The notes beneath the pieces were generated by a model. The model had not been told where the DNA came from. It ran no database searches and saw only the letters and a program-made list of their open reading frames with translations. A stretch of 57,406 nt of DNA, counting the filler, from Squatina squatina (Eukaryota): the NCBI GenBank assembly GCA_031763465.1. It is 4 parts of 4 records of this genome, joined end to end, with 100 filler letters (N's around TTAATTAATTAA, not from the genome) between each part and the next. Parts side by side here need not be neighbours in the genome. Positions count along the whole stretch, not along the records: positions 1 to 16,503 come from JARFOE010000001.1; 3 more parts are not named here. One strand, written 5' to 3'. This document shows positions 1 to 37,080 of this stretch, piece by piece (the first letter of the stretch is position 1; each line of letters begins with the position of its first letter). Both the position numbers and the translations under genes were made by a program.

Positions 1-19
1 AGAGAAATATTACATCGTA

Positions 20-86
20 GGTCATGAATAGCCGGCACAGACACAATGGGCCGAATGGCCTCCTTCTGTGCAGTAAATTTCGATGA
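20..86 (+). repeat. 3' tail of CR1/HER1-type LINE or its partner SINE
   Basis: atgggccgaatggcctccttctgtgc tail motif, also seen at ~20870 and ~32345. Confidence 0.55.
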
Positions 87-669
87 GTAGAAGAATAATT
101 TATGGATCCATCAGACTCAGGGTGGTCACATCAGTGACCACTCCATATGAAGGATACAATATTCCCGTAGCCATAAGCATTTGTTCCCTTTTTAACTATC
201 ATTTCATAGACACAACCTAGCATTACCATTGAAAATATCATGTTTCATTATAATTTATTTCTCTGCATTTTTGTTTTAAGCTGAAGAACAAATAAAACCT
301 TCCAACAATGCTATTCCTGGACTTTGAAAGAACAAACGGGTACATGGAAATGAATTCTAGCTAAAGATGTTTCCCTATCCACTCATCGCCACCCCCAGCC
401 TCGCACCTCATGCAGAAACAAACACTCAGCATAATGGCTTCATCTCCCACACTCGTCGTCAGGCAGGTCTGGATAGCGCAAAGCTTGCCTTCCTGCCACA
501 TGCTTAGGTTATACACAATCTTAGAGCAGCGGGCAAGTAATGTCGGAATGGTTTGCACCTGTCGGATGGGTAAAACTGCACAAAGTAGTGGCCCTACGGA
601 TGCATCTTCATTGCCAGTGGCAGTATGGGGATCCCTCATTTCAGGGAAAGCACAACACTGAAACCTTAC

Positions 670-783
670 CTTTAGTCAATGTGTGGAAAAATAGTTCTAT
701 TTGTTGACACTTCGGTAAAAGCTTCATCAGCTCGAACTGGAATGGTACACCTCGGATAAAATCATTCTCTCCATCATAATCAC
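670..783 (-). CDS. Unidentified 114-nt symmetric (phase 1-1) exon candidate
   Basis: Acceptor cccttttctctatcaagcAG, donor AAG|GTAAGG; only one open frame (GDYDGENDFIRGVPFQFELMKLLPKCQQIELFFHTLTK); protein not recognised. Confidence 0.4.
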
Positions 784-796
784 CTGCTTGATAGAG

Positions 797-1136
797 AAAA
801 GGGCAGTCAGTTCAGGCCCATTTCTGGATGGGAGTGCTCACACTGGGAAAGCACTTAAATATATACTGGAGGATACCCTAAGCGTCCAGAAGGGAGCAAG
901 GCCAGAGATTCACAAGTTTGTTGTGATGATTACTGACGGTCAGAGTTCAGATGATGTTGTTGCTGGTGCTGAACAGCTGAGACATAATGGGATCACCATA
1001 ATAGTACTGGGAGTGGGGGATGCTCAGGCAACGTCACTTCTGAGAATTGCAGGAAGCCGCAAGTTCATGATTTCTGTTCGCTCTTATGAAGATTTTAAAC
1101 ATTATGAAATCAACTTGGTACGAAAAATATGTGAAG
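797..1136 (+). CDS. VWA2: von Willebrand factor A domain-containing protein 2 (AMACO)-like, partial exon, third VWA domain
   Basis: RAVSSGPFLDG...LSVQKGARP...VVMITDGQSSDD...LRHNGITIIVLGVG...ICE resembles recalled VWA2 (RAISQAPYLGG...TVQRGARP...LRNNGISVLVVGVG); donor GAAG|GTAAG at 1137. Confidence 0.7.
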
Positions 1137-1575
1137 GTAAGCTGCACATATAGCTGTACTTGTACTTTAAAAGTTTAAAAACAGAGTATGATGTTCTATT
1201 TTAACAATGTGGAGGGGGAATATGGGCTGATGTGATGGTTAGCTAAATATGAAAAGCCTCAGCAATCAACAGGGCCTGTGGGTTTTATTTAATCTTGGTC
1301 TATACCTGTTCCTATAATCTCCAATCTCATGGTCATCAAATATTTATTCNNNNNNNNNNNNNNNNNNNNNNNNNNNNNNNNNNNNNNNNNNNNNNNNNNN
1401 NNNNNNNNNNNNNNNNNNNNNNNNNNNNNNNNNNNNNNNNNNNNNNNNNAGGTGAAACCAGGAAGGGGACTTCAAGGTCAGCATCTTACCTTTCCACCTG
1501 AACAGAATGATCTGGTCTTTGTTATTGTTCCATAAAACAAATTGCCTCAAAAGTAACAGAGTTGCCACTTCCTGT

Positions 1576-1872
<297 letters not shown>

Positions 1873-2524
1873 TTAGGGTATGGCATTGTATGAATAAGGA
1901 TGAAAAATACTCAGTCACACTGAGGAAAGTATTTGAAGTAGCTCCCTTTGGAATGTACTGATTAAGCATCAGAGTTTGCAGCAGTGTAAGAATATGAANN
2001 NNNNNNNNNNNNNNNNNNNNNNNNNNNNNNNNNNNNNNNNNNNNNNNNNNNNNNNNNNNNNNNNNNNNNNNNNNNNNNNNNNNNNNNNNNNNNNNNNNGA
2101 TTGACTACCTTTCTCTCAAATAGTCTTGGAGCCTTTACTAGGCCCATAATGGAACTTATGACAGCTCAGAGGTGGTATTGTTTCCACTAGGCCTAAGGAG
2201 ACCATATTGGGTGGGATTCTTGGGACAGCCTAGAAACTCTCCCAGACACACCCCATAAGCAATCTTTAATATGATGAGATGTTGATGGGGAGAGGGTGGA
2301 TGACTTGCTCACAAACCCTTCCCAACTGAACTTTGGGCCAGATCTTAGAAACTCAGTTGTTTCATATCCACCGGGTTGGGTGGTCGATCCTACTTCCGCC
2401 CTCCCACCCCACTGGACTCTCAGGCCCAATGTCTTAGTAAAAATGACCAGAAAATATGTTTGCATTTCCAGAAGAGCAAAGTATAAGCAGATTCCAGTCT
2501 TCGAGTGATACAGAAGGTACTTAC

Positions 2525-2647
2525 CCTATAGAAGGATATGGCTTTCTCTCTGTCCCGGGACCCGTTAAAAAACACATCCCCCGCTGCTTCAAAAACTTCC
2601 ATTGCAAACTCCAACTTTTCTGTGCTCACAGCAGCATCTTGTGCAAC
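2525..2647 (-). CDS. SH3TC1: SH3TC1-like internal exon (123 nt)
   Basis: VAQDAAVSTEKLEFAMEVFEAAGDVFFNGSRDREKAISFYR; donor AGG|GTAAGT. Confidence 0.85.
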
Positions 2648-3149
2648 CTTCATTTTTGTTTTACAAAAAGGTTTATATAAATCAGTATTATTACTCCATG
2701 ATTCTTCTTAAAATCTATATATTTTCACAAGTTTTCTCCTGAAGATACAACTTTTGCTAGTTACAGTGCCGCAGTTGCTGATAGCTCTCCGATTCTCTGC
2801 CAAGTTAGCCAAATGTGATCAAAAACTATTTGACCACAGTGGGCACTGTAGCCAAGGCCTATCCCAACCTCATTGGACATCTAGATATGTGCATTTTCCA
2901 TCAAGATCACTGAATAGTGATCAAGGGTATGAAAACTGGCTGATTTCCCCCCACCCTCTCTAGCCTGGGAAGCTGAGAATGAATCAGTGCTCCAACTGCT
3001 GTGATTTCCAAGAAGCTAACTCAGTGTCGCCCTAGAATTAAAGCAAGAGCTCATCTCATCTGTAATGTACAATTATACACTGGTTGCTGCATTTACTCAT
3101 TAACCCATCAAGGAAGCTTATACTAACTTTTTGGGCAATTCCAAAACAT

Positions 3150-3413
3150 AAAAGCATTGGAAAAATTCTGAGGAATAGGATAAATCTTCATTTAGAAAGA
3201 CACAGATTAATCAGCGAATCTCAAGAAAGTAAAAGCCCATGGGATCCAAGGCAAAGTGGCAAGTTGGATCCAAAATTGGCTCAGACAGAAAGCAAAGGGT
3301 AATGGTCGATGGGTGTTTGTGACCGGAAGGCTGTTTCCAGTGGGGTTCTGCAGGGCTCAGTACTAGGTCCCTTGCTTTTTTGATATATATCAATGATTTG
3401 GACTAGAATGAGG
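3150..3413 (+). mobile_element. CR1-type LINE RT fragment, degenerate
   Basis: HLERHRLISESQ, WIQNWL and SGVLQGSVLGPLLF..YINDLD motifs with deletions. Confidence 0.75.
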
Positions 3414-4010
3414 NNNNNNNNNNNNNNNNNNNNNNNNNNNNNNNNNNNNNNNNNNNNNNNNNNNNNNNNNNNNNNNNNNNNNNNNNNNNNNNNNNNNNNN
3501 NNNNNNNNNNNNNTCATGAAAGCCATTGCTTTTAAATGGGGTGGAACTATAATAATTGGGCAGATCTATAATAATGACCATCTAGCTGTTTTCAGTGAGG
3601 AGCAATGGTGAAGCTGCACAAAAGTCTAAGCAAAGTATGGAGTGGCGCAAGAGCCACATGCCATAATTCTCTGGAACCACTGCACCATAATAACGGCCAA
3701 TGATTATACTGTACTCACTGCCTCCGCAGCAACAGAACCATAANNNNNNNNNNAAATTCCAGCACAAGACCATAAAAGAGAATTATATATATTTTACTTG
3801 GTGAAATAAAATGAGGAATGTGTATGCAAACTGTGCAGTCTTGGGGTGAGGAAGGTAGTGCGACAATTCTGCCCAGTGCTTGATCATTAATAGTGATATC
3901 ATTTCCTCTCATGATAAAATGATAATTACAAACACATCTATTGAAATTAATAACTTCAATTTTGTACAAAGTCTTGGAGACCTTTTGGATCAGCAGATCT
4001 GCTCATTTCA

Positions 4011-4250
<240 letters not shown>

Positions 4251-4649
4251 TCAACTCTGCATGTGAGGCAACAGAGAGATGAGGGTCCCTGCTCTCGGTT
4301 AGCTGCAATGGTCATACATAAACTGATTTGAGTTCAATCTCAAGCCAGTTTCTAATGGGACTTATCCACAGCTCAAAATTGCTCATAATTCAACATAGTC
4401 ACAAAATCATCAGATATGTGCTTCGTCTCTTCAAAATGCATCAACACCACGTTCACGGCAAATTCCCTTGGTGACCGTGGATTCTGGTCATGAACTTTCA
4501 ACTCCTCAAATAGTGTTGTTTCTGCTGCACTTTTGCAGAACAATGCAACNNNNNNNNNNNNNNNNNNNNNNNNNNNNNNNNNNNNNNNNNNNNNNNNNNN
4601 NNNNNNNNNNNNNNNNNNNNNNNNNNNNNNNNNNNNNNNNNNNNNNNNN

Positions 4650-5460
4650 AGCATAATTAGAACCTGAATAAAATGCTCATCAGAGGCAACATTTTGCAGT
4701 TCAGAGAAGAGATGAATGGACTTTAAAAGAAATTGTTCTGAAAGACTATAGGCCTTTGACCAAAGGCAGAGCAAACCAAAATTAGCATTGCTAATAGCTT
4801 GGTTAAATTTCTGTCCTAACTCCACAGAGATTGATAGGGCTCTGTGATAGTTCTTAGCAGCTTCCTTCACATTTCTCAATCTTCTCATGGAGATAGCAAT
4901 CATATTGTAAACAACCCCCTGCTGTACAGGGCAACTCTGAACAGAAGAGGACTCTAGTGTTGTGTTTAAAAAGACAATGGCTTTAGCAGGCTCACTATTC
5001 AGAATGTGCAACCATGCAAGAGAAATAACTGCATCGACCATCTCCTCAGTACTAATGGAGACTTGTGTGTTAATGGCCATTTTCATGTAATGAACTGCTT
5101 TTCCATATATTCCATGCAGTTTATAAATTTCTGATAAGCTGAGGTAAATGGTTCGACTAATGTTGTCCGATTCAAGACTGTTTGTTAAAGAGAGTGCCCA
5201 TTTAAGGTAAGGTGCTACTTGTGTTGGAATCATGGGAGTGACTCTACCCATTCCACAGAGCTTTGAGGCACCTTTCATGACAAAGTTTACACTTTTCAAA
5301 CAATCCATTAAAGTTCTAGTAGGCTGTAAGCAGGAAAGTTTTGCACAGCTTATAGCAAGGTTTGGCAGACATTTTCGATAATACAGTGATCCAAGGGTAA
5401 AATGAAAGTCTAAAGGGGTCCTATTTTCTAACATTATGGCATTTCTCAAAAACTGCAGTC
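4650..5460 (-). CDS. SH3TC1: SH3TC1-like large TPR exon, both ends in gaps
   Basis: Open frame with TPR helices (QQGVVYNMIAISMRR...AAKNYHRALSISVELGQKFNQAISNANFGLLCL). Confidence 0.8.
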
Positions 5461-5651
5461 TTTNNNNNNNNNNNNNNNNNNNNNNNNNNNNNNNNNNNNN
5501 NNNNNNNNNNNNNNNNNNNNNNNNNNNNNNNNNNNNNNNNNNNNNNNNNNNNNNNNNNNNNNNACCATTATACGTCAGTGCTTTATAAAGAATGCGGGAA
5601 ATATTAACGAAAGGTAAACTACAAATAAATCACCTACATCTGTGATGTTCA

Positions 5652-5819
<168 letters not shown>

Positions 5820-7089
5820 CTACAAAGGAATTGATACATAGCAGAATGATAACCTGCACTGAGAGAATGTAATATTCTCAGACCAATCTATATTGGCTTC
5901 AGAAAGCTAAGTTTAAGAGGAAACATAATCAGCATGAAATTACACAAACAGTTTCGATATTATACATAGCTAGGATGCAAGAAAGGGAAAATAATGATGG
6001 AGTAGAGTTTCTGCTTTGGGCAAAATCGGGAAATTGCACAAAAAATGGACTTGAAATCATGCAAACTAGGCCACATTTCACATTTTTGCTAAAATTCATT
6101 TGCATAATTAGAAATGTCTGATTTTCCATGAACCAGTGCATCAGATGGTATAATAAAACATAATATTTTCTTTCTTTTCATTAAAATGCATTTCTTGGTG
6201 TATTTAAGAGTGGTAGTCTGGTGCAGTTTTATTGATACAACTGAAAATGGGTTTATCAGCAAAAGTAAACATTTTTAATAAGGGTGTCCAGTTCTCCACC
6301 TGTGAGTAACCCAATTTAAAATCACTTTAAAAATTACTTTCAAAAGGTAGACTGAACCGTTTAATAGTTTCATTGGTGTACATGAATCAGGTTCTCAGTA
6401 AATTAAATATTTTTTGATTTGAAAAAACTTTTAAAACATGCCTACTAGTGCCTATGCACCGAATAAAATAAACACAATTTGAAGAGCCTTCCTGAGCCAG
6501 CACAATCGGCGGAATCTCGTACATTCGATTGGGAGGGGGTAAGCAGTTTTGTGGACGGGCTTGATACAGGTGAACTGAATCTTGATCCAGCTGAAAAGAT
6601 CGCAGAAAGCACGTGAGTGCTTTTGCACGTAACTCACGTTTAAAATTCCCTGATCTTTTGCGCTGGTTTGGCCAATTCTGTCAGGATTGCATGAATATAA
6701 CTAGCAGAAACAAAAGGAAACAGAAGAGGCACTCAGTTCATCCTTTTTTTTGGCACTAAACTAGCGTTAAATGGGCGATAAGGGCTTAACGCTGATTTTT
6801 GGTGTTAAATTTTGCGCTGCGAAATTCATCCCCCCTTAACGCCGGAGCTGAATCGGCACTAACCCCTTAAGGCTTCAATCGCAAAGTTCAGCGTTAGAAT
6901 GTCTCAATAACATCATCAGTGGGCACAACGCCAAAATGGCCGCCTGCTGTGGAATTCGACAAGGCTACAGTGCCTTAAAATTAGCGGTGACAAGGCCCCG
7001 TTTTTTGGGTGTTGACATGCCTCATCTCAGAACTTTGAGCGCTAATGAAAGCACTGGGACTGGGTTTCATTCTCAATTTNNNNNNNNNN

Positions 7090-7497
7090 TCATCCAACAT
7101 CACATGCATAACCTCAGGCACAGAAGAGATCTTATAGACAGGCAGAGAGCCATGAGGGCAGAGGTAAATAAGGCCAGGGCTGAGGAAGCAGCAGCTCCTC
7201 AACCAGACCAACCACTTGACCTCCCAGAGCCAGCTGCACCACTGGTGGCACAGTCCAGGCCACTGCAGCCTCCTCCTAGAGGGCGGAGGCCAAGCCCACC
7301 TTGAAGGAGGTATGCCCACAGAGTCTACAGGTGTCGATTCAGCTACCTACAAATGACCGACGACCTATGCCTTTGTAGACTGCGTTTCAAAAAGGAAGTC
7401 TTGAATGAACTCTGCCAACTCCTGCAGGCTGACCTCCAGCCTCACACCAGGGCTTCCATTGCTCTCTCTGTGGTGGGCAGGTCGCAGGCCTGAGCTC
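7090..7497 (+). mobile_element. PIF/Harbinger transposase (HARBI1-like) N-terminal remnant
   Basis: RRYAHRVYRCRFSYLQMTDDLCLCRLRFKKEVLNELCQLLQADLQP; in-frame TGA at 7302. Confidence 0.75.
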
Positions 7498-8114
7498 CNN
7501 NNNNNNNNNNNNNNNNNNNNNNNNNNNNNNNNNNNNNNNNNNNNNNNNNNNNNNNNNNNNNNNNNNNNNNNNNNNNNNNNNNNNNNNNNNNNNNNNNNTA
7601 ACGATTTAAAGACTGTGATGAATGCGTTAATGGAAAGATATAGTGGCTATGGCTACTTAGTTAAAAAAAAACTGGGGGGAGCAAGGCAGATTAAGGGCTG
7701 TGGGCAGTTAATTAGAAAAAGAACAGCAGCTGGAAAGCCCTGAAGCTTCTCCTGGAAACACAAGGCAAAGTAAGGAAGTTATTCTCTCCTCCCCCCAGGC
7801 ATTCCAGTCCTCAGCAGATCTCCGTGCAAGTCCGAGCACCAGCTTTTTGGGGAACCAGAGTTTGGGTGCCCCGGGAGAGGACGCTTTTGAAGGTGAAGCA
7901 GGAGAACCAAGAATACCTGTCTCATTTCAGTAATAATGTTGGGTCTGTGCCAACTGCAGGTCCAGGTCCAGCTATGCCCTATTGGGGTTCCCCAGGAAAT
8001 TCCAGGGCTGTGGAGTAGGGACGGAGACCTAACACAATGGGTTTCACATTCCCTAGTCTTCTTTACTACACCTGGTGTGCAGAAAAGTGGAAAATCTTTT
8101 GCACTGTGACTTAC

Positions 8115-8242
8115 GCTAAGGAGGGCTATGACCTCTCCACAGTCATTCTCTAGAATGCAGAGTTTTCCTCTCAGCATGTCCTGTAGCTGTGTGTCGGGAA
8201 GTCCTGTTGTTTGTCTCTTCATGATTAGTTTCAGTAAAATAT
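8115..8242 (-). CDS. SH3TC1: SH3TC1-like N-terminal exon (128 nt)
   Basis: DILLKLIMKRQTTGLPDTQLQDMLRGKLCILENDCGEVIALLS resembles SH3TC1 LQQTLRGQLRLLENDS; acAG acceptor, GTAAGT donor. Confidence 0.8.
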
Positions 8243-11072
8243 CTGTCAAGGAAACAAAGAAATTTATATGTACAAATAGTTTGTATTTGCATTGCTCGTC
8301 ACTCCCATTTTACAGAGGGAATTGTTATATGCAGTCAATTCCTACTAATTGTTTCCTGTTAGACCTAACATGTTATTATGTGACCTTGTCCTGACACCAG
8401 AGTTCTCTAGTGGGGTCAGGAGCAGGCGTCACTGGCACCCACACCCCTGCACTTTCGCTGGTGGAACGGAGCCAAGGAACTTTGGTCCTTATATGTTTTT
8501 TTAAACCCTATTTTGATTTCCTCCATACTCTTTCTGCACCTCATTCATCGCCAAAAAAAGCTTGTCTAGAAAAATAACCTCAGCCTCTTCCTCAAAGCTG
8601 CTCCATAATTCATTTCTGTGGAGCCGAGTGGCTATGAAGGTTTTTTTTTGGCCTTCCTTCTTTCCCCCACCCCCATGGAGTGTTCTGCTGCTACACAATG
8701 ACCTGTGAAGAAAGTAACCAAGCCAAAACAAGCAAAACATGACAACTAAGGGCAGTGAGTTCAAATGTCAGCNNNNNNNNNNNNNNNNNNNNNNNNNNNN
8801 NNNNNNNNNNNNNNNNNNNNNNNNNNNNNNNNNNNNNNNNNNNNNNNNNNNNNNNNNNNNNNNNNNNNNNNNCTGAGCAGTGCTTTGGTCTATGAGAGCA
8901 ACAAGGAGCTGCTTTTTTTCTTTTATTAAGCTGCTGTAGTTTACTCCTTTGGACTATTTGTTTTCAAGCACCACCTTTAGAATCTATTTGAAGTGTGGTT
9001 ATACATTAAGATACTTGTGATACAATACTCACAGCTCATTCAGAGGAACAGCGGAGAGAACTATGAACAAGGTATCTGAAAGGCACTTACATGGATGAAA
9101 GCAATAACTGTTAATGCAATCAAATTTTATAAAACAGGTGATTCGTTTGTCAATTTTTTTACTGTAAAAATTGGTTGGAGTCATGTAGCTACGATGTAGT
9201 TACTGAAAATACTGAGGTGTACTTTAGATAACTAAAGCGCACAGGATACTGAAGCAAATTGACGTGTTTTCAGGTTTGTTACACTTCTTTAAAAAATGTC
9301 AATTTTCGGTTGTTATAGTCCCGCGAAGGACCAGTTACAAATCACACCAGCAGCATTTCGTCTAGGATTCTGTGTGGGTGTGCGTTACATTGCACTGTCG
9401 TTGGGCCCCACCCCTGCAGTTTGTTTCCCTGTAAAAAAAATGCATATTAGTAATTATTTGAGTGACACTCTAGACCACTGTGGAAGTTTGATTAAATCTA
9501 AGTATAGATAGGAACATAGCAATACAATATGCACAGAGACTACTTTTAGACGTTGACACATCTAACATGAGTTCAGCTTTAACATGTGTCTGCTAAATAA
9601 ATCCCTCCCTTTCACACCACATTAAGAATTAATACTGCTGTTACAAAGATGGTGTATTAGTTACATGACATCTTTGCACATCTATAACCTGATACATCCA
9701 AGACAGGAGAATGTCAATTCAAAAGTTTAGATTCAGAGGGGTAGAGTTTTCACGTTGACCGCAATCGGCAATCTGGGCGCAAATTATGCTGGAAATGTCG
9801 CTGGTTTTCTGAAGTGAAGTTTCTGGTCAAACTTATTTGCATAATCTTCCATGAAGTAGTGCAATCAGACAGCATTTTAGAATATAAGTTTTTATTTTTC
9901 CCCTTTTATTAAAGAATATTCCTTGATGCATTATGAGCAGTCAGCTGGTTTGGTTTTATTAATACAGCTGAAAATGGNNNNNNNNNNNNNNNNNNNNNNN
10001 NNNNNNNNNNNNNNNNNNNNNNNNNNNNNNNNNNNNNNNNNNNNNNNNNNNNNNNNNNNNNNNNNNNNNNNNNNNNNATCAAGGGAAACTCCAGAATTTG
10101 GAATAGGTTGGAGAGGGACATCATGACCTATGGCAACATTTTTGGCAGGACAGATATTTCTAATTTCCCAAGTGGTTGCACAGTTATGTTCTACTGATCC
10201 ATGGAGCTTTGTGCAGACTCATCAATGCGCTGCACGTTACGAGTGGCTTGGAATAACTGGAATTGCACACAAGAATGTTGATCGAAGAAATGAATGTCCA
10301 GCCAACTAGAGAGGGATCTCCTTTGCCTAGAATGCCTCTTAGCCCAGTATGATGATATTAATACATTCCTTTTGCCCATCATTAACATTTGTCACAGCCT
10401 GTGTCTACTTGGAGCTGAAAATGTGGTCTTCAGTCAAATGCCCTGAAGGTGTTTGTATTCATCTAGGAGGAGGATGGGGGAGGAAGTTCTATTAATATTA
10501 ACAGCCTGCAATAACACAGCCTGTTTGTCTCGGGGAGCTTCTGCAGTCATATGATCTCTGGCTGCCATTCTTGAACTATCTGGAGGAATATCCAGTAACA
10601 GAGTTTCACTTCTCAGCTGCGGCAAAGCCCACGCTGTAATTGAGTGGGCACCGAAGTATGGGTCGTATGTCTAGATGGATCGGAGACCCACTTAATGGAA
10701 CTGTATATCCGTAACTGACATGACTGAATTGAAATCAACCTCTGCTATGCCTGAAGACACCGGTAGAATACTGCTTCGTAAATATATTTATATTCTACAT
10801 TGATACCATAGGATTTCCATGTGAGGGGAAGAGGTTGTNNNNNNNNNNNNNNNNNNNNNNNNNNNNNNNNNNNNNNNNNNNNNNNNNNNNNNNNNNNNNN
10901 NNNNNNNNNNNNNNNNNNNNNNNNNNNNNNNNNNNNNNGCAAACATGACTTGAATAAGGAGTCTAGTTTTCAGGGATGCCAAACACAATCTGTAGAACAG
11001 CTCTTCAACTTAATGGAAGCAAGCAGGATTGATCAAATCTTCCATTTCAATAACTCCAGAAAGTATGCCTCT

Positions 11073-12521
11073 TTAGATCTGGTACTCTTTTTCTGGACTG
11101 CTTGTGGAAGAACTAAAACCAAGTTTTGCATCCTCCATTTTTTCTGGCACCAGAATAGAATCTTCATCTTCTTCGGTTGTCAATTGATCAAGGATATCAT
11201 ATGCCAGTTTATATATCTCCTCATTTTCATGCAGTTGTAATTGTTCAATCATTTGCAAACCTCCACACTCTTCAATCTGGTTTGTTATCAGTTCTGTCTT
11301 ATCATTTGCTGTATTCAGGATATTACTTAAGCCATCCAGTACTACTATAATTATCTGAGGGTCCAGCAGTGTAAGCAGCCGGCAGAATGGAACTACTACA
11401 TTTTGTTCAATCAGGTAGTTAATCTGATCTTTCCTACCANNNNNNNNNNNNNNNNNNNNNNNNNNNNNNNNNNNNNNNNNNNNNNNNNNNNNNNNNNNNN
11501 NNNNNNNNNNNNNNNNNNNNNNNNNNNNNNNNNNNNNNNCTACCACAATTAGCTAGATTGGCTATGACCCAAGCAGTTTCTTTCTGCGTAGCATAATCCC
11601 CATTTTCCATGAGGTTTACAATCATAGGAACAAGGTTAGCATTAATCACGGCCTGTTCCTGTTGCTGGTTTCCAGCAGTGACATTGGAGAGAAACCATGC
11701 AGCATCCTTATTGAGTTTCACATTAGGATGAGTTAGCAATGCTGGAAAATGAGAAAGAGCTCCGCAGTTCAGGACCGCTTGTGCTTGTTCATCAGTACCA
11801 GTTACAATATTTCCTACGGCTCGCAATGACGCAGTTTGAATATTGGCCTCCTGATGGCTAAAAAAAGGTACCAAATGAGGAACTATTCCTGAATCTAGAA
11901 CCATCTGGATCTGGTCATCTTCAGCATCTGTTATGTAGGACAAGGCCAAAACAGTGTCTATTAAGACATGAATGTCATTGTGATGAACAAGAATACACAT
12001 AGCTGGAAGAATCTCTTGAACAGTTTCCTTTGGCAAGGGAGGGTCTTTCTGACGGCAGAGATTAACAATTACCCATGTGACAGTGCGAAGGAAAGTAAGG
12101 GGGACTGAAGCACTGACAAAAGAAAGCACAGGCTTTATCATTCCTAGACTAATGACATAATCTCTACATTTGGGCCCATCAGCTATTACATTGCCTAAAG
12201 CCAAAAGTGCTTGTTCGCACACATCCTGATGTGGGCAGTTCAACAGTCTTAACAAAAGTGGGACAGCATTTGATTTAATCATAGCCTCTGTGTGTTCTGA
12301 AGGACCATAAGCAATGTTTGCTAAAGCCCACACTGCTTCTAACTGCAATGGAGGATTGTTGTCCTGTTCTAGACAGCGCATAAGAATTGGAAAAATGCCA
12401 GAATTGATTAAATCACCTATTGGAGGAGCATAATCACCGGACACCAACTCTCTAGCAGCTTGCACTCCGCTGAGTTGAATTTCCTGGTTATCACTAGTTG
12501 CATTTTTTACTATTTCTTCTA
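11073..12521 (-). CDS. KPNA4: Intronless divergent importin alpha-3 (KPNA4)-like retrocopy; IBB domain lost in the upstream gap
   Basis: ARM repeats to stop without introns; KPNA4-type [28 protein letters not shown]; flanks of the 11440-11539 gap overlap by 6 nt (ctacca), restoring NCG-RKDQ in frame. Confidence 0.85.
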
Positions 12522-12621
12522 NNNNNNNNNNNNNNNNNNNNNNNNNNNNNNNNNNNNNNNNNNNNNNNNNNNNNNNNNNNNNNNNNNNNNNNNNNNNNNN
12601 NNNNNNNNNNNNNNNNNNNNN

Positions 12622-13295
12622 CTCAGGCCCCCTCCCCAACCTCTTTTTCTGATACATTGATGACTGTATCGGTGCCGTTTCCTGCTTTCGCCCTGAGCTT
12701 GATACTTTCATTCACTTTGCCTCCAATTTCCACTCTTCCCTCACCTTCACATCTCTGACTCTTCCCTTCCCTTCCACGACTTCTCTTTCTCCATTTCTGG
12801 GAATTGGCTCCTCACAAGCATCTACTATAAGCTCACTGACTCCCACAGCTACCTGGACCACACTTCTTCCCACCTTGTTTCCTGTAAAAACTCCATTCNN
12901 NNNNNNNNCTCCGTCTCTGTCGCATCTGTTCTGATGACGCCATGCTTCTGACATGTCTTCCTTTTTCCTCAACCGAGGATTCCCCTCTACTGCGGTGGAC
13001 ATGGCCCTCGATTGTGTCTGTTCTATTTCCCACACCTCTGCCCTCACCCCTTCTCCTCTCTCCCAGAACCACAATAGGGTTCCCCTTGTCCTCACTTTTC
13101 ACCCCACCAGCCTCCATGTTCAATGGATCACCTGCCGCCATTTCCGCCACCTCCAGCGTGATTCCACTACCAAAAACATTTTCCCTCCCCTCCCATTTCA
13201 GGATTCCAAAGGGACCACTCCCTCTGTGACACCCTGGTCTACGCCTCCATCACCCCTACCAACCCCTCCCCTTCCCACTGTCCAGGGCCCCAAAC
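12622..13295 (+). mobile_element. Penelope-like retroelement remnant (RT C-terminal region)
   Basis: IYYKLTDSHSYLDHTSSH, LRLCRICSDD, SSFFLNRGFPST...RVPLVLTFHPTSLH motifs. Confidence 0.75.
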
Positions 13296-13521
13296 NNNNN
13301 NNNNNNNNNNNNNNNNNNNNNNNNNNNNNNNNNNNNNNNNNNNNNNNNNNNNNNNNNNNNNNNNNNNNNNNNNNNNNNNNNNNNNNNNNNNNNNNCGAAT
13401 GATCACTGACATAATGTGTAATGTGTGTATTCTTTATCTGGATAGAGAAAGTAAATAATGTAATTTGCTCCTAACTTACTGCAATATTGACATTCATGGT
13501 TTCCATTCTCTCTCTTAACAG

Positions 13522-13578
13522 AAATAATAATCTGAAAACACTGTTAGCCATTGGAGGTTGGAATTTTGATACCACCAG
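13522..13578 (+). CDS. GH18 chitinase (CHIA/CHIT1-like) 57-nt exon
   Basis: NNNLKTLLAIGGWNFDTT; acceptor ctctcttaacAG, donor CAG|GTAAAA; diagnostic LKTLLAIGGWNF motif. Confidence 0.85.
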
Positions 13579-13982
13579 GTAAAATTTGTAATATTTCCAT
13601 TTTCACAAAGAGATGAAATCTCAAAGTTCAGTGTGTCAAGAGCTGAGAAATATTAATGTTGACATTTCTCTGTTTATCTGGTAAAATGAAATTGAAAATT
13701 TTCAATTATGAAACAGAACTATGGCAACACACACCTAGCTTAAGGAGTTCTCGGTTTCCTATTAGATTTCTCATTTAGTTGCTGAGAAATGTAGGTTGCC
13801 CAGTCAGACAGACAACCCAAAAAATGTGGCCATTTTAGCAGGAATTTAACTCTAAGCCATTGGTTTTCCAACCAGCATCTGCAGGACGGGGAAGTGTGTA
13901 GGTCTGATCCTATGGGACATTTTGAAAAATTACAAATTTTCTTTCATCGAGAAATCTGTATAAACAGTGTGCCAGTGACCGA

Positions 13983-14068
13983 GTGACCAAGGAAACGGGG
14001 AACTACAGATCTGTTAACCTGACATCAGTAGCAGGGAAAATGCTAGAATCTATTATAAAGGATGTGAT
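13983..14068 (+). mobile_element. CR1 LINE RT fragment
   Basis: GNYRSVNLTSVAGKMLESIIKD. Confidence 0.75.
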
Positions 14069-16503
14069 NNNNNNNNNNNNNNNNNNNNNNNNNNNNNNNN
14101 NNNNNNNNNNNNNNNNNNNNNNNNNNNNNNNNNNNNNNNNNNNNNNNNNNNNNNNNNNNNNNNNNNNNACTTCTTTCAACAACTATCATTACCAAAAAAA
14201 ATAACAAATGGTCATTCCTCTCATATGGTTTTAGTGGAATCATTCTGTGTCAAAAATGTAAGTTGTACTGCTTACAAGACACCAGTGACTACATATTAAA
14301 GTAATTAATTGTTTGTGAAGTACTGTGGAATGTGATTGAGAGACACGATGAGGTGCTATATATAAATGCAAGTTCTTTACAATCCCCAATATCAACCAGG
14401 GTCACTGGGGGAGACATCAAATGGAGGTGAGATGTTTCTTTAGGGGAAGGAGGAAGACAGAGGGAGAGTCTGACACACAGATGCATTTCCATGGTATTTG
14501 TATTGGTAGATGCCAGGGGTAAGATCAATTTATTCACCCTCTAAGGAATGGTATATGTCAGAAAAAAATCTAAAAAGAATGAATATTATATAAGCAGGGT
14601 GTGGGAGATTAGAACCAATCGCACTACCAATCCTTATTACCAAATACATTTAAACAATTTTCTTTCTTTACTTGCATCCTTTTTGTTCTGCTCAGAGCTC
14701 ACCTCTGCTGGTATTCATTCCCTGCATACTGGTAGTTACAGCTCCCTGTCAACACACTCCAGCCCTCCATCCACTCTCACACCTAACTATGTTCCTTATT
14801 TTCAAGGTAAGATGCACGTGCTGAGTTTGTCGAGAAGTACCACTCTGTGCCTATCCAAAGAGATAGGGTCTATGCATGTTTGTATAGCAAACTTGATGTC
14901 AGTATATTTTGTCACGAATTAGTGCACACATATCTGGTAACAAATTTTGCATCATAATGCCCTTTTACCACACATAATTAGACAGTTATGTGGCAAACCA
15001 AAGTAGCGTTACAGAGCTGTTTTTCACTATTAGTGCTATGTACATTTAACCTTACAAAATCATATCATGTTTTTAAGTAAGTTTGAGTCATTACTGCAAC
15101 CCACTTTTAANNNNNNNNNNTATTTTTTCTTAATGCATTCAGGTAAATTTGATAAGGCTCCACTCTTTGACATGTGGCCTCATTCAGGCATCAGAGAATT
15201 AAGCACAGAAATCAGTCCACCAAGTTTGCAGCGCACCAGATTTTCCAAATTTACCCTATTGTTAATTGTTTCCAAATTAGCTGTAGGAAAGACCAGTTGA
15301 TACCTCTGCTGGTCATTATTTGCTTTGAAGAATCTGATTGATTTGTTCCAGACGTTTGTAACATGCTGGGCATGATTTTATAATTGCAGTGTGCAGCGGT
15401 GCTAATATATTGAGGTTTGCACTTTTTTCCACCACCAATGCAACATGGCATAAGTCTTTCATTACATAATGGTGAGATTAATACCAGCTGTAGCGACAAG
15501 TCATGTTCTGCATATAAATCAAAGGAAAATACAGGGAAGGGGGTGGAGGTAATAAAACGATAAAATCAAACTATTGCACAATTAACATAAGAACGCAGAT
15601 AAGACCATAAAGGAAAAGAGGAACAGGGCATTTTATAGATACAGGAGGTATTGTTGAGGATTTTAAAAGGCCCTAAATCCTGAGAAGGCTGTGATAATCA
15701 ATCCCAGAAGCACAGCAGGCTCCATTGGGAGCCAAAAGGAAAGAATGTACCTGGATCATTGAACTCTTTTCAAGCCTTTGTTCTGCCCTTGGAGCTACAC
15801 GTCACCACTCCAATTATTGGTCCTTCTATTAGGGTGGGTGTCATTAATGCATATTTACAGGTGCCTATATGTATATGCCTTTTCCCGTAAGAATTGGGAT
15901 GGTTTTTTTCATCGTAACTTCTGTGCCAGCAGAACAGGACTTCTGGAATTTAGGCCCAGTGGCCTTTATAAATGGTAAGGTACAACACCTGTAAAACTGC
16001 TCAGCACTTCAGATGCACCACTCACAAAGCATATGTGAACTATAATGGTGTAAACATGCAGCAGTAAGAAATTTATTAGCACTGCATCACAGGAAAGAAT
16101 GTTGCAAAAAATAGATTAAAACATGCCCATGAGTGCTCAGGTCTGTGAATGACAATGAATATAAGAGATGTTAATAACAGCACTACTAACACATTGGCTT
16201 AATTTAATATGGAAGTACTTGGCCTTGGGTCATCCTTCAAAAATCAGAAAATTAAATTGAAGTGTGCATCCATCATTTATGCTTTAAAAATTATGGAATA
16301 AATCTTAGTCCCTCAAGCAGGTTGAAATCTCACTTACCAAAACATAAATTTGTCATTAAGCAGTAATGCGATGAAGATGCAATGACTTTGCAGTCTTTTT
16401 CATTTTTTTCCGACTATTTACAGAATGCTATTGATGAGAACATAATAATTTGCCCTTGTATTAATAGCTGACATCAAGGCAGTCGTGATTGTCTTTGTGT
16501 GTC

Positions 16504-18024: not shown

Positions 18025-18874
18025 CTGGAAAAATTGCACAGTAAGGAAACCGGTAAAGTTACCAGTGAAATACAATAAAAACCAGAACAAAACACTGTTT
18101 ACCTGCTAAAAAGGGTTCAAATATTCATTCCCTTTTTCGTAGGTACATATTCTTGTTCACGTATGTATAAATTATATACAGCATTAGTTAAAATAGTTAA
18201 ATGTGCTATGAAAATAAGTTTTCAAACTCAACAAAAGGTAACATTTTTACCATACATGATTTAAGAAAAATGTTAACAATTAATACATGCCAATATAGGT
18301 TTAAGATTTACAACAGTTCTTTTATGTTGCATTTTTCCTGCATAGGTAGAAGTTCTTTTTGTATTGAAACTATTAGTCAATACACAATTACTGTAGTCAG
18401 AATTAAATGTAGACTACCTCATGGAAGTTGCTACTTTACTGTATTTTTTTTAAATAAATGAGCACGAAAACTTATTTGCAGTAATAAAGTTAAAGCATTT
18501 CACTAAAATGTTAAAACCTACCTAGAATATGAAAGCATATTCACAGTTAGCAACAATCATAAGCAGCTAACCTTTATAATTCTGTCTGAACTACTTATAC
18601 AAAGTTATGCAAAAAATTAATAAAATGTTATCTTTAAAAATCACATTTTTTGAACAAGTGTCCAGAAAGCATTTTTCTTTTTATGCAACAGTAGCAATGT
18701 TAACCCAATTAGTTTTCATATCCACAGCTATTTAGCATGGAGATTGCCGACAGTCTTGCCTCTGAATAGGGTTANNNNNNNNNNNNNNNNNNNNNNNNNN
18801 NNNNNNNNNNNNNNNNNNNNNNNNNNNNNNNNNNNNNNNNNNNNNNNNNNNNNNNNNNNNNNNNNNNNNNNNNN

Positions 18875-20004
18875 AATCAGATGCAGTAAAAATGCAAAAT
18901 CATTCTTCACATCCGGAATGTCATCAATCCCAGTTTCTTCTCTAACATATGCAAACGAGTATTCCTTAAGTTTAAAGTAGAAGATCCAGTACAATGTGTA
19001 GATGCAGGTTATACAATAAATGAAAATGACTACTACATACACGATGGACAACATCCTGAATAACCTCCAAAGACCATGGATGCAGAAAAATTCTGTGAAG
19101 CCTGTGATATGAATTTTATCTACACAGTGGACAATATGTTTCATTTGAGGAATCCGAGTTACAAAATAGGCTAGAACAAGAATTGTTTGAACAGAACGTA
19201 GAACAGTTTGCCTTATGTACATCCTATAAAGAATATGACCTTCTTCAGTGTGAAGACGAAACTTTTTGACTTTTTCAAACAATGCTTTTGCTTGTTCTCC
19301 CTCCTTTTTATCCAGGATTTTTACTGCAGCATGACCATAAACACCACCTCCAACAGTTTTAAAAGTCTTAGATGGAGGCTTGCACAATGATGCTTGTGCT
19401 TCAGTCTCACATAGTCTGTCATTTCTGGTTTCATTTTGTCCCAATAAAAAGGTGGTATCAGAAGATTGCTGTAGGTTTAAAGAGCAAGATACAGATGGTT
19501 CAGTTGATAAAACTGTTCGTTGTGGAATCTGCAGATCCGAATCCTCATAAACAGTTTCTGAAAGTGCCTTAGTAGTCCATTGAGAATCTAAACATTTTCC
19601 AAGGATTGATATAAAATGTTCAATTTTGGAACTTGTTCCTGGAAATTTGAACCAGAAGTTACTGCTTANNNNNNNNNNNNNNNNNNNNNNNNNNNNNNNN
19701 NNNNNNNNNNNNNNNNNNNNNNNNNNNNNNNNNNNNNNNNNNNNNNNNNNNNNNNNNNNNNNNNNNNNAAAAATATAAGTGTGTGAATGATAGCTATGTA
19801 CGGAAAATACTTTGAATACCACTGAATTGCATGGTCATAACAATATTGATCCATTAAATTGTACTGTTCGCGGTCCAAATCGGTCTTAAATCCAGAATCA
19901 AAACTATTTAGTTTACGACCTTTAAGAGCACTTTTGTTCCACTGCATGGTGGCCATCGAGAAGCCGTCTGGCACAGGGACACAGATTATCTTGTCTGTTG
20001 ATAT
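18875..20004 (-). CDS. Divergent LRRC8 paralog, coding exon 2 (EL1 to IL2; LRRs lost in gap)
   Basis: ISTDKIICVP...DLDREQYNLMDQYCYD...SSNFWFKFPGTSSKIEHFISILGKC...LDKKEGEQAKALFEKVKKFR...IPDVKNDFAFLLHLI; acceptor aaacAG; internal gap 19669-19768. Confidence 0.9.
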
Positions 20005-20558
20005 CTGTTTAAATACAACAGATAAAAAAAAATGCCATTTCATTTAACTCTGAACTAGTATTCAACAATTTTGCACATGCAGTTTTTTTTATTATGTTGC
20101 CAATACAATAAATGAACAAGAAAAGAAAATCGAAAACATGTGAGGCTGAACTTTATTCCAATATGCCTCTGGGTGTCCTTTTCTCTCTGTGTTTCAGGGC
20201 ATTATGAATGTTATCCTGTTTTTTTCTGATATGTGCTGCATTCTATGCTTGCTTGTTGATGTATTTTGCCTCAATTTAAACTATTTCAATGCAAATTGGT
20301 CACTTTTGACATAAATTGTGATTCAATTCCAACTATAGTAATTAGTTTGGCCCTGAAATTACATTGTGCAATACGAGTGGACAAGTGTTTAATGCATTCC
20401 TCTGAAATTCCTCTCTCCTATTCCTCTAATGATTTCTTTCATCACACAGTCACAGCAGATGTCTGGTGCTCTCTCTAGGCTGTCCATCTCAGGGGAAGAA
20501 TTCAATGCTGCTGCAGCAACTGCAGGGGTCAAGGCAGTTATTCGGTGTCTGTAACAAT

Positions 20559-25478: not shown

Positions 25479-25890
25479 TTATATTCCTGCGCCAAAAGTT
25501 GAATTTGAGTTAAAGTCTTGATTAAAGAGGTCTTTAACATCAGGGGGCAGTGTGTCAAAGAGGTGATCTTCAACGACAAGCCCGCTTTTCTTCAGAAGGC
25601 GACAGTGGCCTAACTCTGCTGGGAGTCGGTCCAGGCAGTTCCCCTTCACCTCGAGCTGCGTGAGCTGCACAAGGTGACCAACCTTTTCTGAAATGGAAGT
25701 GATGCAGTTTTGCCCTACATTCAAAACCCTCAACTTTGTGCATTTAAAAACCTGCTTTGGCAAAATTTCCACTCTGTTTCCTGTAACTGCGAAATACTGT
25801 AAATTCTGGAGAGATGTGATTTCCGCTGGAATGATGACGATGGAATTGTGACTTACATCCAGGTATCTGAGCTTCTGTAAAGTGAAGAGA
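25479..25890 (-). CDS. LRRC8D: LRRC8D C-terminal LRR part
   Basis: LFTLQKLRYLDVSHN...KGNCLDRLPAELGHCRLLKKSGLVVEDHLFDTLP...GAGI stop. Confidence 0.9.
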
Positions 25891-26069
25891 NNNNNNNNNN
25901 NNNNNNNNNNNNNNNNNNNNNNNNNNNNNNNNNNNNNNNNNNNNNNNNNNNNNNNNNNNNNNNNNNNNNNNNNNNNNNNNNNNNNNNNNNACCTGCTGAG
26001 TTTTTCCAGCAATTTTTGTTTGTATTCTAGATTCCAGCATCCGCAGTATTTCGCTTTTGTATTACTTGC

Positions 26070-26392
26070 CTTTATATGTCACCTTTCACAACCTCAGGAC
26101 ATTCCAAAGTGCTTTCCAGCCAATTAAGTACTTTTTGAAGTGAAGGAACAGTTGTAACACAGCAGCCAATTTGTACACAGCAAGGTCCCACAAACAGCAA
26201 TGCAGTAATAACTGGCCCATCTGCCTTTGTTGTTGGTCGAGAGATAAAAAATTGGCCAGGACACCAGGGTGAACGCCCCTGCTCTTCGTCAAAATAGTGC
26301 CATGGGATCTCTTGCATCCATCTGAGAGGCCTTGGTTTAATGTCTCATCCAAAAGATGGCACCTCCAACAGTGCAGCGCTCCCTCAGTAATT
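26070..26392 (-). repeat. DeuSINE (SacSINE1/AmnSINE1-type Deu domain)
   Basis: Reverse strand reads ctgagggagcgctgcactgttggaggtgcc...gatcccatggcactattt...gaagagcagggg...ttgctgtttgtgggaccttgctgtg...cttcaaaaagtacttaattggctg; partial copies at ~14210-14380, 34310-34480, 43610-43780. Confidence 0.8.
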
Positions 26393-26826
26393 TCTCAGTA
26401 AATTTAGCCGTAATTTCTATGTGGCTCGGTGTCAAATTTTTGTCTTACAACACTCCTGCGAAGGAGCCTTAGGAAATTTTATTACATTAAAGGCGCTATA
26501 TAAATACAAGTTGTTGTTGTTGACCCTAGCTGAAGCTTATCAGAACATAAGCCTGTTCTGTCATTCAATTCATTAAGATCATGCCTGACCTGTACCTCAA
26601 CTCCATTTGCCTGCCTTTTTTCCATGTACCTTGATAGCCTTACCGAACAAAAATATATCAATCTCCGTCGTGAACTTTTCAGTTGACTCAATTGGAGTGC
26701 TACAATTGGTCTCTGTACCCGTGGGCTATAGCGGGGGAATATCAGCCAGGGTTCCAGCTCCTAATCACTGCTTAGCAACCTTGGTTGGAAAGTATATTTG
26801 TGTGTGCGATGGGCGAGAACAGGATC

Positions 26827-28427
26827 AGACTTGATCAGGCTGATGGATGAAGGGATGGTGATGATTTTGTTGTGCCATAATTTCAGGCACGTCAAGCGCT
26901 TCAGGTGTTGAAAACTGATCACCTCTTCAATTGTGCGAATGTTGTTGGATTTCAAGTCCAGCTCCTGCAGGTTAGTTAAGCTGAAAATGGCGTGCGGAAT
27001 CCGTTCCAGCTCGCAGTTCTGCAGCTCCAGCTCAGTTAGATTGATCATCTTCTTCAAGCTGTTCAGCACTAAAAGTTTAGTTCCATCATTGTGAACCAGT
27101 AGCGCGGTGAGATGGGGCGCAACGTCAGTGATGTTTGAAGGAACTTTGGTCAGATTACGCTTGAGGTGCAAGATCTTTAGGTGTTTCAGTTCGCGCAGCG
27201 ACTCTAGAGCTATCATCTTATTGTTTTCAGAGTTCAGATTACCAACTAGGTACAGTTCACGCAGGTTTTTAAGCACATAGACCCAGTTGGGGATTTCTGC
27301 AACGTCAGTAAACTTGATGTGCAGATACCTAAGGTGGTCCCGGAGGAAGCTGAAGGCAGTTTGTTCCACTTTAGCTGGGCAATGGTAAAGGTGCAGTTCC
27401 TGAAGATTAGTCATTTGGGAAATTTTGGCTGGAATCTTCGCCTCAGGAATCAGCTCTAACTTCAGCACCTCAAGCTCGGTCATGTCGAACACAGCGTCGG
27501 GCACCCCGGAAAGCATGAAGAGGTGCAGCTCCTGCTTGTCTTGAGGATTCCGAGAGACGTGCTGCTTGAGTTTCTCGTAAGTCCACTCGTGGTTCAAACT
27601 GAGCTCCCGCAGTTTGTTTTCACTCACCTCCGACAGAAAGACCCCAAAGCGCTTTGAGTAAAGTTGGTCATATTGATCAACCATGTGCAGCAGAAATGCA
27701 AAGTCATTTTTAACATCTGGAATGTCACTAAAGCTACTTTCTTCACGGACCTTTTCAAATGAGTATTCCTTTAAGGGCCGCCTGAACAGCCAAAACAAAG
27801 TATATATGCAAACCAGTCCATAAACGCATATGAGTGCAATGTAACTAATTAGTAATTTTCGCAGCATAAAAGCCATGTTGTGAGTACAATAAAATTGAGT
27901 ATACCCAGTCAAATGCTCTATGTCTGGTCTGCAGACATGATCAAAACTTATAGAAGTCACAAAAGTAAGCGTATAACATAAAATAAACATTAATTTCACT
28001 GTCTTTATGACTGTCTGGACAACATAGAGTTTATATATCAAATCACTGTCTTCTACATGGGCACGGAACTTACGAACTTTTTCAAAGAGGGCTTTGGCCT
28101 GCTCGCCATCTTTCTTGTCTAAAATAGTCATGCTCGGAACCTCAATGACAGGCTTCTCAGCCGAAAATTTAGGTCCAGTCCTTGATATCATAGGTGTGCT
28201 GGAGCTCGGGCTTTCTTCTTCGCTGCCAGTCGATAAATGCTTTGCCACAGAGGTCTTAAAGCGTTGCTTGTTCTCCTCAGAGTCCTCGCACGCAGTTTCA
28301 GAGAGTGCTTTTGTGGTCCACGGAGACTCGAAACACTTTCCCAATATAGAAACAAAATGTTCGATCTTTGAACTGGTCTTGGGGTACTTGAACCAGAAAT
28401 TGCTACTGACCATGAGGATGAGTGTAT
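26827..28427 (-). CDS. LRRC8D: LRRC8D main coding region (TM2 to LRRs)
   Basis: SSNFWFKYPKTSSKIEHFVSILGKCFESPWTTKALSETACEDSEENKQR...FSAEKPVIEVPSMTILDKKDGEQAKALFEKVRKFRAHVEDSDLIYKLY are LRRC8D-specific. Confidence 0.93.
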
Positions 28428-29220
28428 NNNNNNNNNNNNNNNNNNNNNNNNNNNNNNNNNNNNNNNNNNNNNNNNNNNNNNNNNNNNNNNNNNNNNNNNN
28501 NNNNNNNNNNNNNNNNNNNNNNNNNNNCATTAAAATGAGCAAATACATCCTTCATACATATGGGCTATTATGTTTACTTTATCCTTATACTGTTTTGAAT
28601 ATACAGATAAATACAATAGGAGTCAATTAAACAACTATTAAGTGCGGTGCTGAAACATAATTATGTATGATACTGCTATTTGAAATATAATTTACTCATA
28701 CAAAGTATCGCAGTTCACACATTCAGCCTTGTAATACTGTACATCAAGAAAATACAATATAGTAATTTGTACAGTGTGATAAAAATTGACATTAAAAAAA
28801 TAAAAAGGCAATTTAGTTCTAAAATCAGTAGTGGACACACAGATATCACAAACAGATGTCGAACAATTAAAATAATGACTTTGAATTACAATAACAGGGT
28901 TTTTCTCATTTGCGGATCATTTGGAATTCCAGGCAAAATAAAGTACACAAACCCTCCTAGCCTACAAGAAACCACAAATAATTACTGTTTTGTTTGCTGT
29001 AATGAGTAAGTGCAGAAGTGAGTGATGATAATATTTTGAACACAAGGAGGCCCTCATGCAGTTGAATTAGTATTAAATCCAATTCACATTGCAGGAGTGA
29101 CTCAGCAAGCAGTGAGTAGATCTCATGTCAACATTTCCACTAGAAATACTGAACCGAGTCTCTGTGATATGAATGTATGTTTCTTTGGATGCATTTACAG
29201 GACAGGTTTAGCATTGAGGC

Positions 29221-29320: not shown

Positions 29321-30139
29321 CAAATGTGTGCCTATTAACAGTTGGGTTGACACTGCCCCAAGATTATTTTAGAATCTTTATGGTTAGCAGACTTCGTTGG
29401 CTAATTCTAATCCAGTGAATGTTAAGACAGTCTGTTCGAGTTTCTGCTCATCTCCCCAAGTTATATCAGCGCACTCCGGATGGAATCGGACAAACCAGTG
29501 GAAAACATCAAAACCACTTGCACTCATGTTTTCCTCTATCTTATAAATGGGTTCAAGATTCAAGTGGCCCAGCCCATAAAAATGGCCACCCCCCCACCAG
29601 ATTGAAATTGAGATTCTGCTGATTGCACTGGTTTGGAAAGGCTCTTCAAAATGCACCCATTTCCTTAGGTGCACAGACACTAGTAGGCACGTTTGAAAAC
29701 TTCTTATGTCAAGAAATGCTACATTGAACCAGTAAATAGTATAGCTTTTTACATTATTTTCAGTGATTTTAAATCAAATTACTCACAGATGGAGGACTGG
29801 ACACCCTTATTAAAAGTTTTATTTTTGCTGATAAACTCATTTTCAACTGCAGCAATAAAACTGCACCAGGCTACCATCCAGGGAATACTTTTTAATGGAA
29901 AGCAAAAAATGATTACAGTCTATCATGCTGCCCAATTGTATTAGTTCATGGACAATTATAAGTTTGTGATTATGCAAATGAAATGTAACCAAACTAGCAC
30001 AATTTAAAGCACATTGTGAATTTCCTGATTGCGGCCAAAGCGGAAGTTCTACTTCAGTGTGCTTATCGACTGCATCTGCTAGTTCCCCTTCTAATCTATT
30101 CAAAAGCTCTGCATCTCTCCCCCCTCCTGTTTAGCTCAC

Positions 30140-30305
30140 CTGAATTCCAGATCCAGGGCCTGGCGCAAACATCTTAGTGCCAATCATTTTGGACAGGTTT
30201 CTCGGTTGGCTCCAGGTCCTTCCATCATCCTGGCTCTCAATCAGGAGTGTGCTGGAAACATTACAATGATAGTGGTGGGCACACATTGTGTACATGATCA
30301 AAATG
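30140..30305 (-). CDS. NEU1: Sialidase-1 partial exon
   Basis: [51 protein letters not shown]: Asp-box SxDxGxTW plus [10 protein letters not shown]; donor CAG|GTGAG. Confidence 0.9.
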
Positions 30306-34861: not shown

Positions 34862-34961
34862 NNNNNNNNNNNNNNNNNNNNNNNNNNNNNNNNNNNNNNN
34901 NNNNNNNNNNNNNNNNNNNNNNNNNNNNNNNNNNNNNNNNNNNNNNNNNNNNNNNNNNNNN

Positions 34962-36980: not shown

Positions 36981-37080
36981 NNNNNNNNNNNNNNNNNNNN
37001 NNNNNNNNNNNNNNNNNNNNNNNNNNNNNNNNNNNNNNNNNNNNNNNNNNNNNNNNNNNNNNNNNNNNNNNNNNNNNNNN

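Follow-up and report, generated by a model that had tools for sequence, protein, structure and literature searches.

A two-part importin-alpha frame

The window (the whole stretch of 57,406 nucleotides of Squatina squatina DNA, filler included) carries on its minus strand an importin-alpha frame of 446 codons in total, split into two pieces by a gap of 100 N (Table 1). The larger piece, 12519-11542 (-), has 326 codons and no stop, and aligns with residues 74-397 of human importin alpha-3/KPNA4 with an E-value of 7e-163, versus 1e-94 for importins of the alpha-1 types. A further 121 codons lie at 11438-11076 (-), closed by a stop at 11073-11075. A Pfam scan detected Arm and Arm_3 domains, and ten ARM repeats are present, the last of them atypical. 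About 72 N-terminal codons, those of the IBB, are absent from the window, where the larger piece stops at another N gap. We considered the segment 12622-13295 as the missing 5' end and rejected it, as it has neither an importin frame nor a Pfam match; it consists of repeat-like fragments, which we take to resemble a Penelope-type retroelement.

Taken literally, the 100-N gap would put the two coding halves out of frame with each other. The pieces on either side of it share 6 bases, the sole overlap of more than 2 among the 47 gaps of the window. We took contigs from 8 of 23 public runs of relatives (4 DNA and 4 probable RNA, the RNA status of runs X18-X23 being a guess of the software) and aligned them to the stretch. 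Single contigs skip a net 106 bases across the gap in all four DNA runs and in three of the four probable RNA runs. Because contigs of relatives bridge the gap with a net length of -6 bases, we regard it as an assembly artifact, and the same contigs rule out an intron at 11440-11539. The window as a whole is a fragmentary assembly: N runs, 37 of them exactly 100 N long, separate its 48 pieces, which are short and exon-rich. Since at least one 100-N gap is really negative, frame breaks at gaps of this assembly should not be equated with introns or frameshifts. A first-pass annotation of this DNA had described some 450 codons free of introns, stops and frameshifts: the frame is indeed open and intronless, but its 446 codons come in two pieces around 100 N.

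Table 1. Features of the probable retrogene and its surroundings (window coordinates; residue numbers are those of KPNA4, with importin alpha-1 numbers in parentheses)
Feature	Position	Strand	Remark
Main coding piece, ARM repeats 1-8, KPNA4 74-399	11540..12521	-	326 codons from 12519; 5' end truncated at N gap
C-terminal coding piece, ARM 9-10 and acidic tail	11073..11439	-	stop codon 11073-11075; Arm_3 E 8e-17
100-N assembly gap, not an intron	11440..11539	.	real size -6 bases
3' flank, likely 3' UTR	10939..11072	-	spanned by probable RNA contigs of relatives
SH3TC1 exon, same scaffold, outside the gene	4652..5461	-	serves as synteny anchor
S144Y (S149), rim of P2/P3 pocket	12307..12309	-	Tyr in 15/15 copies
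W179L (W184), Trp between P3 and P5 pockets	12202..12204	-	Leu in 15/15
D187 (D192), P2 lysine pocket	12178..12180	-	kept in 15/15
N219T (N228), P3 contact	12082..12084	-	Thr in 15/15
W264L (W273), ladder Trp of ARM5, between major and minor site	11947..11949	-	Leu in 15/15
T319A (T328), minor-site P1' contact	11782..11784	-	Ala in 15/15
E345D (E354), minor-site contact	11704..11706	-	Asp in 15/15

Origin and age of the KPNA4 copy

In each of the four DNA runs, which represent four organisms, one contig of 2371-5593 bases spans the locus from the 3' flank to position 12521. These contigs extend 586-3903 bases past the 5' edge and carry non-coding flanks. From codon 74 to the stop, the frame is continuous in genomic DNA and the introns of the parent are absent (4/4 DNA runs). 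Other contigs of the same runs match exon-sized parts only, with GT/AG ends at four internal positions: an acceptor before codon 257, a donor and an acceptor at 301/302, a boundary near 344/345, and a donor after 379 preceded by the KPNA4-type Leu-Asp-Lys; these splice positions are read from loose contig ends. Because exon-sized contigs with splice-like ends occur in the same DNA runs, an intron-bearing KPNA4 has been retained beside the copy, and chimaera KPNA4 proteins are also on record. The multi-exon nature of the parent, as stated earlier, is borne out by exon-intron contigs and by a spliced form in the runs of relatives.

The intron-free copy of KPNA4 likely arose by retroposition. We considered that it might instead be a DNA-level duplicate that lost its introns, an assembly or cDNA artifact, or a pseudogene. 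The 134 flanking bases show neither a poly-A tail nor a target-site duplication, and no AATAAA; such scars are not expected to survive at the age proposed below. That no scars are visible, and that the window is a fragmentary assembly, would both suit a non-retroposed origin. Against it, four organisms have genomic contigs, the longest of 5593 bases, that carry the frame uninterrupted together with non-coding flanks; no fewer than four intron positions are missing at once; and the frame is open in 14 species. The artifact and pseudogene readings are largely refuted, and we find this group of explanations hardly credible.

A protein search returned shark and ray entries as best matches, at 81-89% identity, with all KPNA4 proteins at about 71%. 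A cluster look-up yielded full-length orthologs of 515-519 amino acids from eight sharks, five batoids and Callorhinchus, 14 named species in all. The IBB is present in all 14 in our alignment, and PF01749 scores above its cut-off in both of the two proteins scanned. The intact 5' end whose recovery had been suggested is therefore found in the orthologs, though not in the copy of the window, and the search for orthologous copies in other chondrichthyans, suggested at the same time, finds them in sharks, batoids and the chimaera. A recent or lineage-specific retrocopy is ruled out by this taxon range. Database entries such as XP_041054750.1, XP_048455094.1, XP_051888620.1 and XP_042191932.1, named 'importin subunit alpha-3-like', are the same gene; these names are automatic and do not mark a separate paralog, a retrocopy or a groove variant.

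In a tree of 36 rows under LG+G4, the window protein and its 14 orthologs form one clade (SH-aLRT 100) inside KPNA4 (100), with the chimaera branching first, then batoids, then sharks. A second tree under LG+C20, with 26 rows after leaving out 10 near-duplicates, gives the same grouping, again with SH-aLRT 100. Both models place the clade with KPNA4 and apart from KPNA3 and the alpha-4-like proteins, in agreement with the parentage first proposed. These trees come from a quick search with SH-aLRT as the measure of support, and both omit two skate-like rows as well as one alternative chimaera model. The stem branch of the clade measures 0.31 changes per site under LG+G4 and 0.37 under LG+C20; most KPNA4 end branches lie between 0.002 and 0.06.

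Cartilaginous fishes also have a distinct 'importin alpha-4-like' paralog, sister to KPNA3 (P0113, P0136, P0139, P0147 in our protein set). Counting KPNA3, KPNA4, the retrogene and the alpha-4-like gene, they have four genes of the alpha-3 subfamily. The UniRef entry V9KI83 from Callorhinchus (P0080) looks chimeric: its N-terminal part is close to alpha-4-like, while its C-terminal part is identical to chimaera KPNA4.

SH3TC1 offers a synteny anchor. Several of its exons lie at 1579-5461 (-) in the window, with best matches to Pristiophorus (90%) and Heptranchias (86%). In 9 of the 14 species the contig with SH3TC1 has exactly the same length as the contig with the retrogene, and in Chiloscyllium punctatum the locus tags of the two genes are two apart. 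Among the frames of at least 35 amino acids in 1-16503, inspection by eye revealed no ABLIM2 exon. The two records lie on different short contigs in Scyliorhinus torazame, and no SH3TC1 record was among the matches listed for S. canicula, Pristis and Hypanus. Synteny in Callorhinchus is ambiguous: one record is 10-13 accession numbers from an SH3TC1-like record, and in the second pair the contigs differ. The clade, the taxon range and the SH3TC1 synteny fit one insertion event that preceded the chimaera-elasmobranch split of about 410-420 million years ago; an earlier origin, preceding the divergence from bony fishes and followed by loss in them, is conceivable. The gene is old and class-wide, common to sharks, batoids and the chimaera, and older than the first-pass annotation had assumed.

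Changes in the signal-binding groove

According to PMC2929220, the seven human importin-alphas share an almost perfectly conserved signal-binding surface. The two Trp-to-Leu changes noted at first sight are real: their TTG codons lie at 12204-12202 and 11949-11947, on KPNA4 W179 and W264, and the alignment offsets agree with their assignment to W184 and W273 of alpha-1, and the other residue changes listed with them are present as described. The Trp/Asn ladder is incomplete, as both residues are Leu in all 15 copies while W137, W222, W348, W390 and the ladder Asn residues are kept. This is a variant inside the importin-alpha family, not outside it.

Beyond the changes of Table 1, G186A/S, T146P/S and R103Y/N are also replaced in all copies. 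Kept in 15/15 are W137, N141, G145, T150, N183, D187, W222 and N226, as well as R229, R306, N310, W348, N352, E387, W390 and N394. The statement that the binding-site anchors are preserved therefore holds for the major-site Asp and for the minor-site Trp and Glu, but not for the minor site as a whole, where T319A and E345D are fixed in 15/15. Of the 329 columns that are near-invariant in 21 canonical rows of the alpha-3 subfamily, 48 are lost in every copy and 164 remain invariant.

In alpha-1 numbering, a bound signal contacts N188, N228, W184, S149 and W231 through its P3 lysine, and D192, G150 and T155 through its P2 lysine (PMC12375970); W184 separates the P3 and P5 pockets (PMC3946659), and T328 binds P1' (PMC3946659; PMC4474859). 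Setting these published contacts against the residues of the 15 copies, three of five P3 contacts are replaced and the P2 anchor has been preserved. A W184R/W231R mutant is reported to lose major-site binding, its Kd rising from 2.1 to about 690 uM (PMC4548243); this double Arg change is harsher than the single Leu of the retrogene.

Among diverse importin-alpha representatives, the W179 position is Trp in 136 of 146 and the W264 position in 137 of 150, and the groove combination of the retrogene occurs in none of the 150. N219T is common elsewhere, with Thr in 22/150. Two distant representatives (P0365 and P0449) have Leu at W179, a residue other than Trp at W264 and Ala at T319, changes that are possibly convergent.

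The fixed changes show no clear excess of groove residues (7/32, versus 45/306 invariant columns, p 0.17); enrichment is borderline at best, with p values of 0.04, 0.10 and 0.08 at three conservation thresholds. Of the amino acid differences from KPNA4, 77 of 79 are within one base change, which counts against re-specification, since early drift would give the same. One may thus hypothesize a functional but largely redundant importin, whose groove drifted in a relaxed phase after retroposition and was then compensated (for instance, by Tyr144 for Trp179), whose cargo overlaps that of the parent, and whose expression pattern or dosage would be the reason for its retention. Besides the missing significant enrichment and the mostly single-base changes, such a history would accord with the retention of the P2 pocket, the Asn ladder, W137, W222 and the KRR motif, and with an evolution faster than that of KPNA4 that persists in the crown: chimaera and white shark retrogene proteins are identical at 354 of 516 positions, chimaera and marsupial KPNA4 at 479 of 511. 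However, positions 144, 179, 219, 264, 319 and 345 hold the same amino acid in 15/15 copies while the remaining protein varies, and the 4 columns lost among the 38 with at least 90% conservation are all groove residues. On balance we regard redundancy as unlikely.

The IBB of the orthologs has a KRR motif, which fills P2-P4 and is unchanged in 14/14 full-length copies; this fits an unaltered binding site as well as it fits constraint from importin-beta. The last Arg of the RxxR motif is Gln in the same 14 copies (RRQQ). The RxxR arginines are given as at least 95.7% conserved in all families and are tied to autoinhibition (bioRxiv 2021.10.25.465662). A model of the white shark ortholog superposes on importin alpha-3 with a target TM of 0.95-0.97 and an rmsd of 1.5-2.1, so that its predicted fold is that of a normal importin alpha-3. 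The AlphaFold models of the white shark ortholog and of KPNA4 both leave the IBB undocked, with pLDDT <50, and are for this reason uninformative on autoinhibition.

Loss of the central major-site Trp and of the minor P1' contact, together with a broken RxxR and a retained IBB, could also describe a non-transporting regulator or decoy. Such a protein would bind little cargo in addition to importin-beta and the export factor, and would damp classical import or serve, possibly in germ cells, as a scaffold in the nucleus. KPNA7 is a precedent, as it shows that loss of classical signal binding and residence in the nucleus are open to a divergent importin-alpha (PMC2929220). Yet 25 of the 32 listed signal-contact residues are not lost and 22 are invariant in the 15 copies, including the acidic anchors D187 and E387, a conservation needless for a pure decoy unless it serves autoinhibition or export. 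We consider a decoy distinctly improbable.

Constraint, transcription and possible role

The open frame is under purifying selection, with a long stem followed by constraint. Out of 175 differences in all, the tool selected 40 for listing; after dropping one in the flank, the 39 listed coding differences comprise 22 synonymous and 17 non-synonymous changes. On this subset, pN/pS is 0.22-0.32 depending on the transition weight, with p from 4e-6 to 3e-4 versus neutrality. Over 860 bases aligned without a gap, a spliced contig of the parent type shows 161 differences. A rough dN/dS to the parent, in which KPNA4 of other species stands in for the parent protein, is 0.22-0.35 and covers both lineages; since KPNA4 barely changes, the value of the copy itself is likely higher. 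The suggestion of a retrogene under selection is upheld by both estimates.

The retrogene is likely transcribed in relatives. Its contigs occur in three of the four probable RNA runs (X18, X19, X20; two organisms, two studies) alongside the spliced parent, and the fourth, X21, contains the spliced parent only, which is no sign of silence or of tissue restriction. DNA run X17 covers the flanks at 10189-10785 and 9198-9734, and X19, which comes from the same sample, does not. It is this co-occurrence with the spliced parent, and the silent flank in a DNA/RNA pair, that argue for transcription.

The long stem branch may also evoke host-virus or meiotic-drive conflict, as proposed for importin retrogenes in Drosophila (PMC8645118), and several viral proteins have been solved bound to importin alpha-3. 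Recurrent turnover is not what we observe, however: each species has one stable ortholog, pN/pS is near 0.2-0.3, groove residues are invariant, and most of the fly duplicates are without an IBB (PMC8645118). A product of such conflict therefore seems very improbable.

We think it fairly probable that the gene is a specialized nuclear-import adaptor with a changed cargo preference, an old copy of KPNA4 likely derived by retroposition. The same pocket changes in every species checked make a different cargo set likely, and from these sequences we infer that cargo specificity may be altered. More tentatively, and with less confidence than for the adaptor role itself, we propose that the rebuilt P3/P5 pockets read a non-classical NLS code, a lysine anchor with non-basic residues, in a dedicated cargo, and that this extra importin-alpha predates the chimaera-shark split. 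Reverse transcription of a KPNA4 mRNA and its insertion near SH3TC1 would predate the divergence of chimaeras from elasmobranchs. The protein would still bind importin-beta through its IBB, and would anchor the P2 lysine and the backbone of the signal as usual (G145, T150, D187, N141, N183 and N226 being kept). Because the cation-pi cage for basic P3/P5 residues would be replaced (W179L, S144Y, N219T), classical K(K/R)x(K/R) signals would be bound weakly. Signals with non-basic P3/P5 residues, or minor-site-led signals, would be favored, and loss of the last RxxR Arg would weaken autoinhibition.

The parent gene, human KPNA4/importin alpha-3 (PDB 5TBK, 6BVV, 6WX8, 4UAE), is 71-72% identical over the ARM region and shares the IBB, ARM and Arm_3 domains with the retrogene family. 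Unlike KPNA4, the retrogene is without introns in the part seen, lies beside SH3TC1 and evolves faster, and S144Y, W179L, N219T, W264L, T319A, E345D and the change from RxxR to RRQQ are fixed in it. KPNA7/importin alpha-8 is likewise an importin-alpha of vertebrates that has diverged, and both altered signal binding and weak autoinhibition are reported for it, but it keeps the signal-binding residues (PMC2929220); it may serve as the nearest functional analogy. RNA-mediated importin-alpha duplicates that evolve faster than their parent are also known in Drosophila (alphaKap2A-H, alphaKap4-7). These fly retrogenes are described as recurrent, turning over, testis-enriched and mostly IBB-less (PMC8645118), whereas the shark gene is a single old copy with an IBB, stable across a vertebrate class.

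No paper on the retrogene was among the literature matches listed, in a search to which subscription journals and supplements are external. How importin-alpha paralogs choose different cargo is an open question, and two ladder Trp and most of a P3 pocket, swapped and then fixed, offer a natural test of the residues that set specificity. In sharks, rays and chimaeras this fixation has lasted more than 400 million years. The vertebrate importin inventory gains a class-wide gene that had been masked by 'alpha-3-like' names, and, if our reading is true, the most conserved surface in the importin-alpha family would have been re-specified in nature.

Elsewhere in the window, we observed a VWA-domain exon at 719-1150 (+) by Pfam, and a short open frame at 13520-13579 (+), which presumably resembles a family-18 chitinase exon. 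Two LRRC8-like genes, as we take them to be by eye, lie in fragments at 18728-20043 and 25479-28551. The segment 29321-43483 is one scaffold, whose frames were read by eye: we take it to include a sialidase-like exon at about 30131-30305, three TNF-family-like frames (33812-34378, 34637-35005 and 36943-37452) and B30.2/PRY-SPRY-like frames at 40072-41217, a content presumably reminiscent of an MHC class III region.
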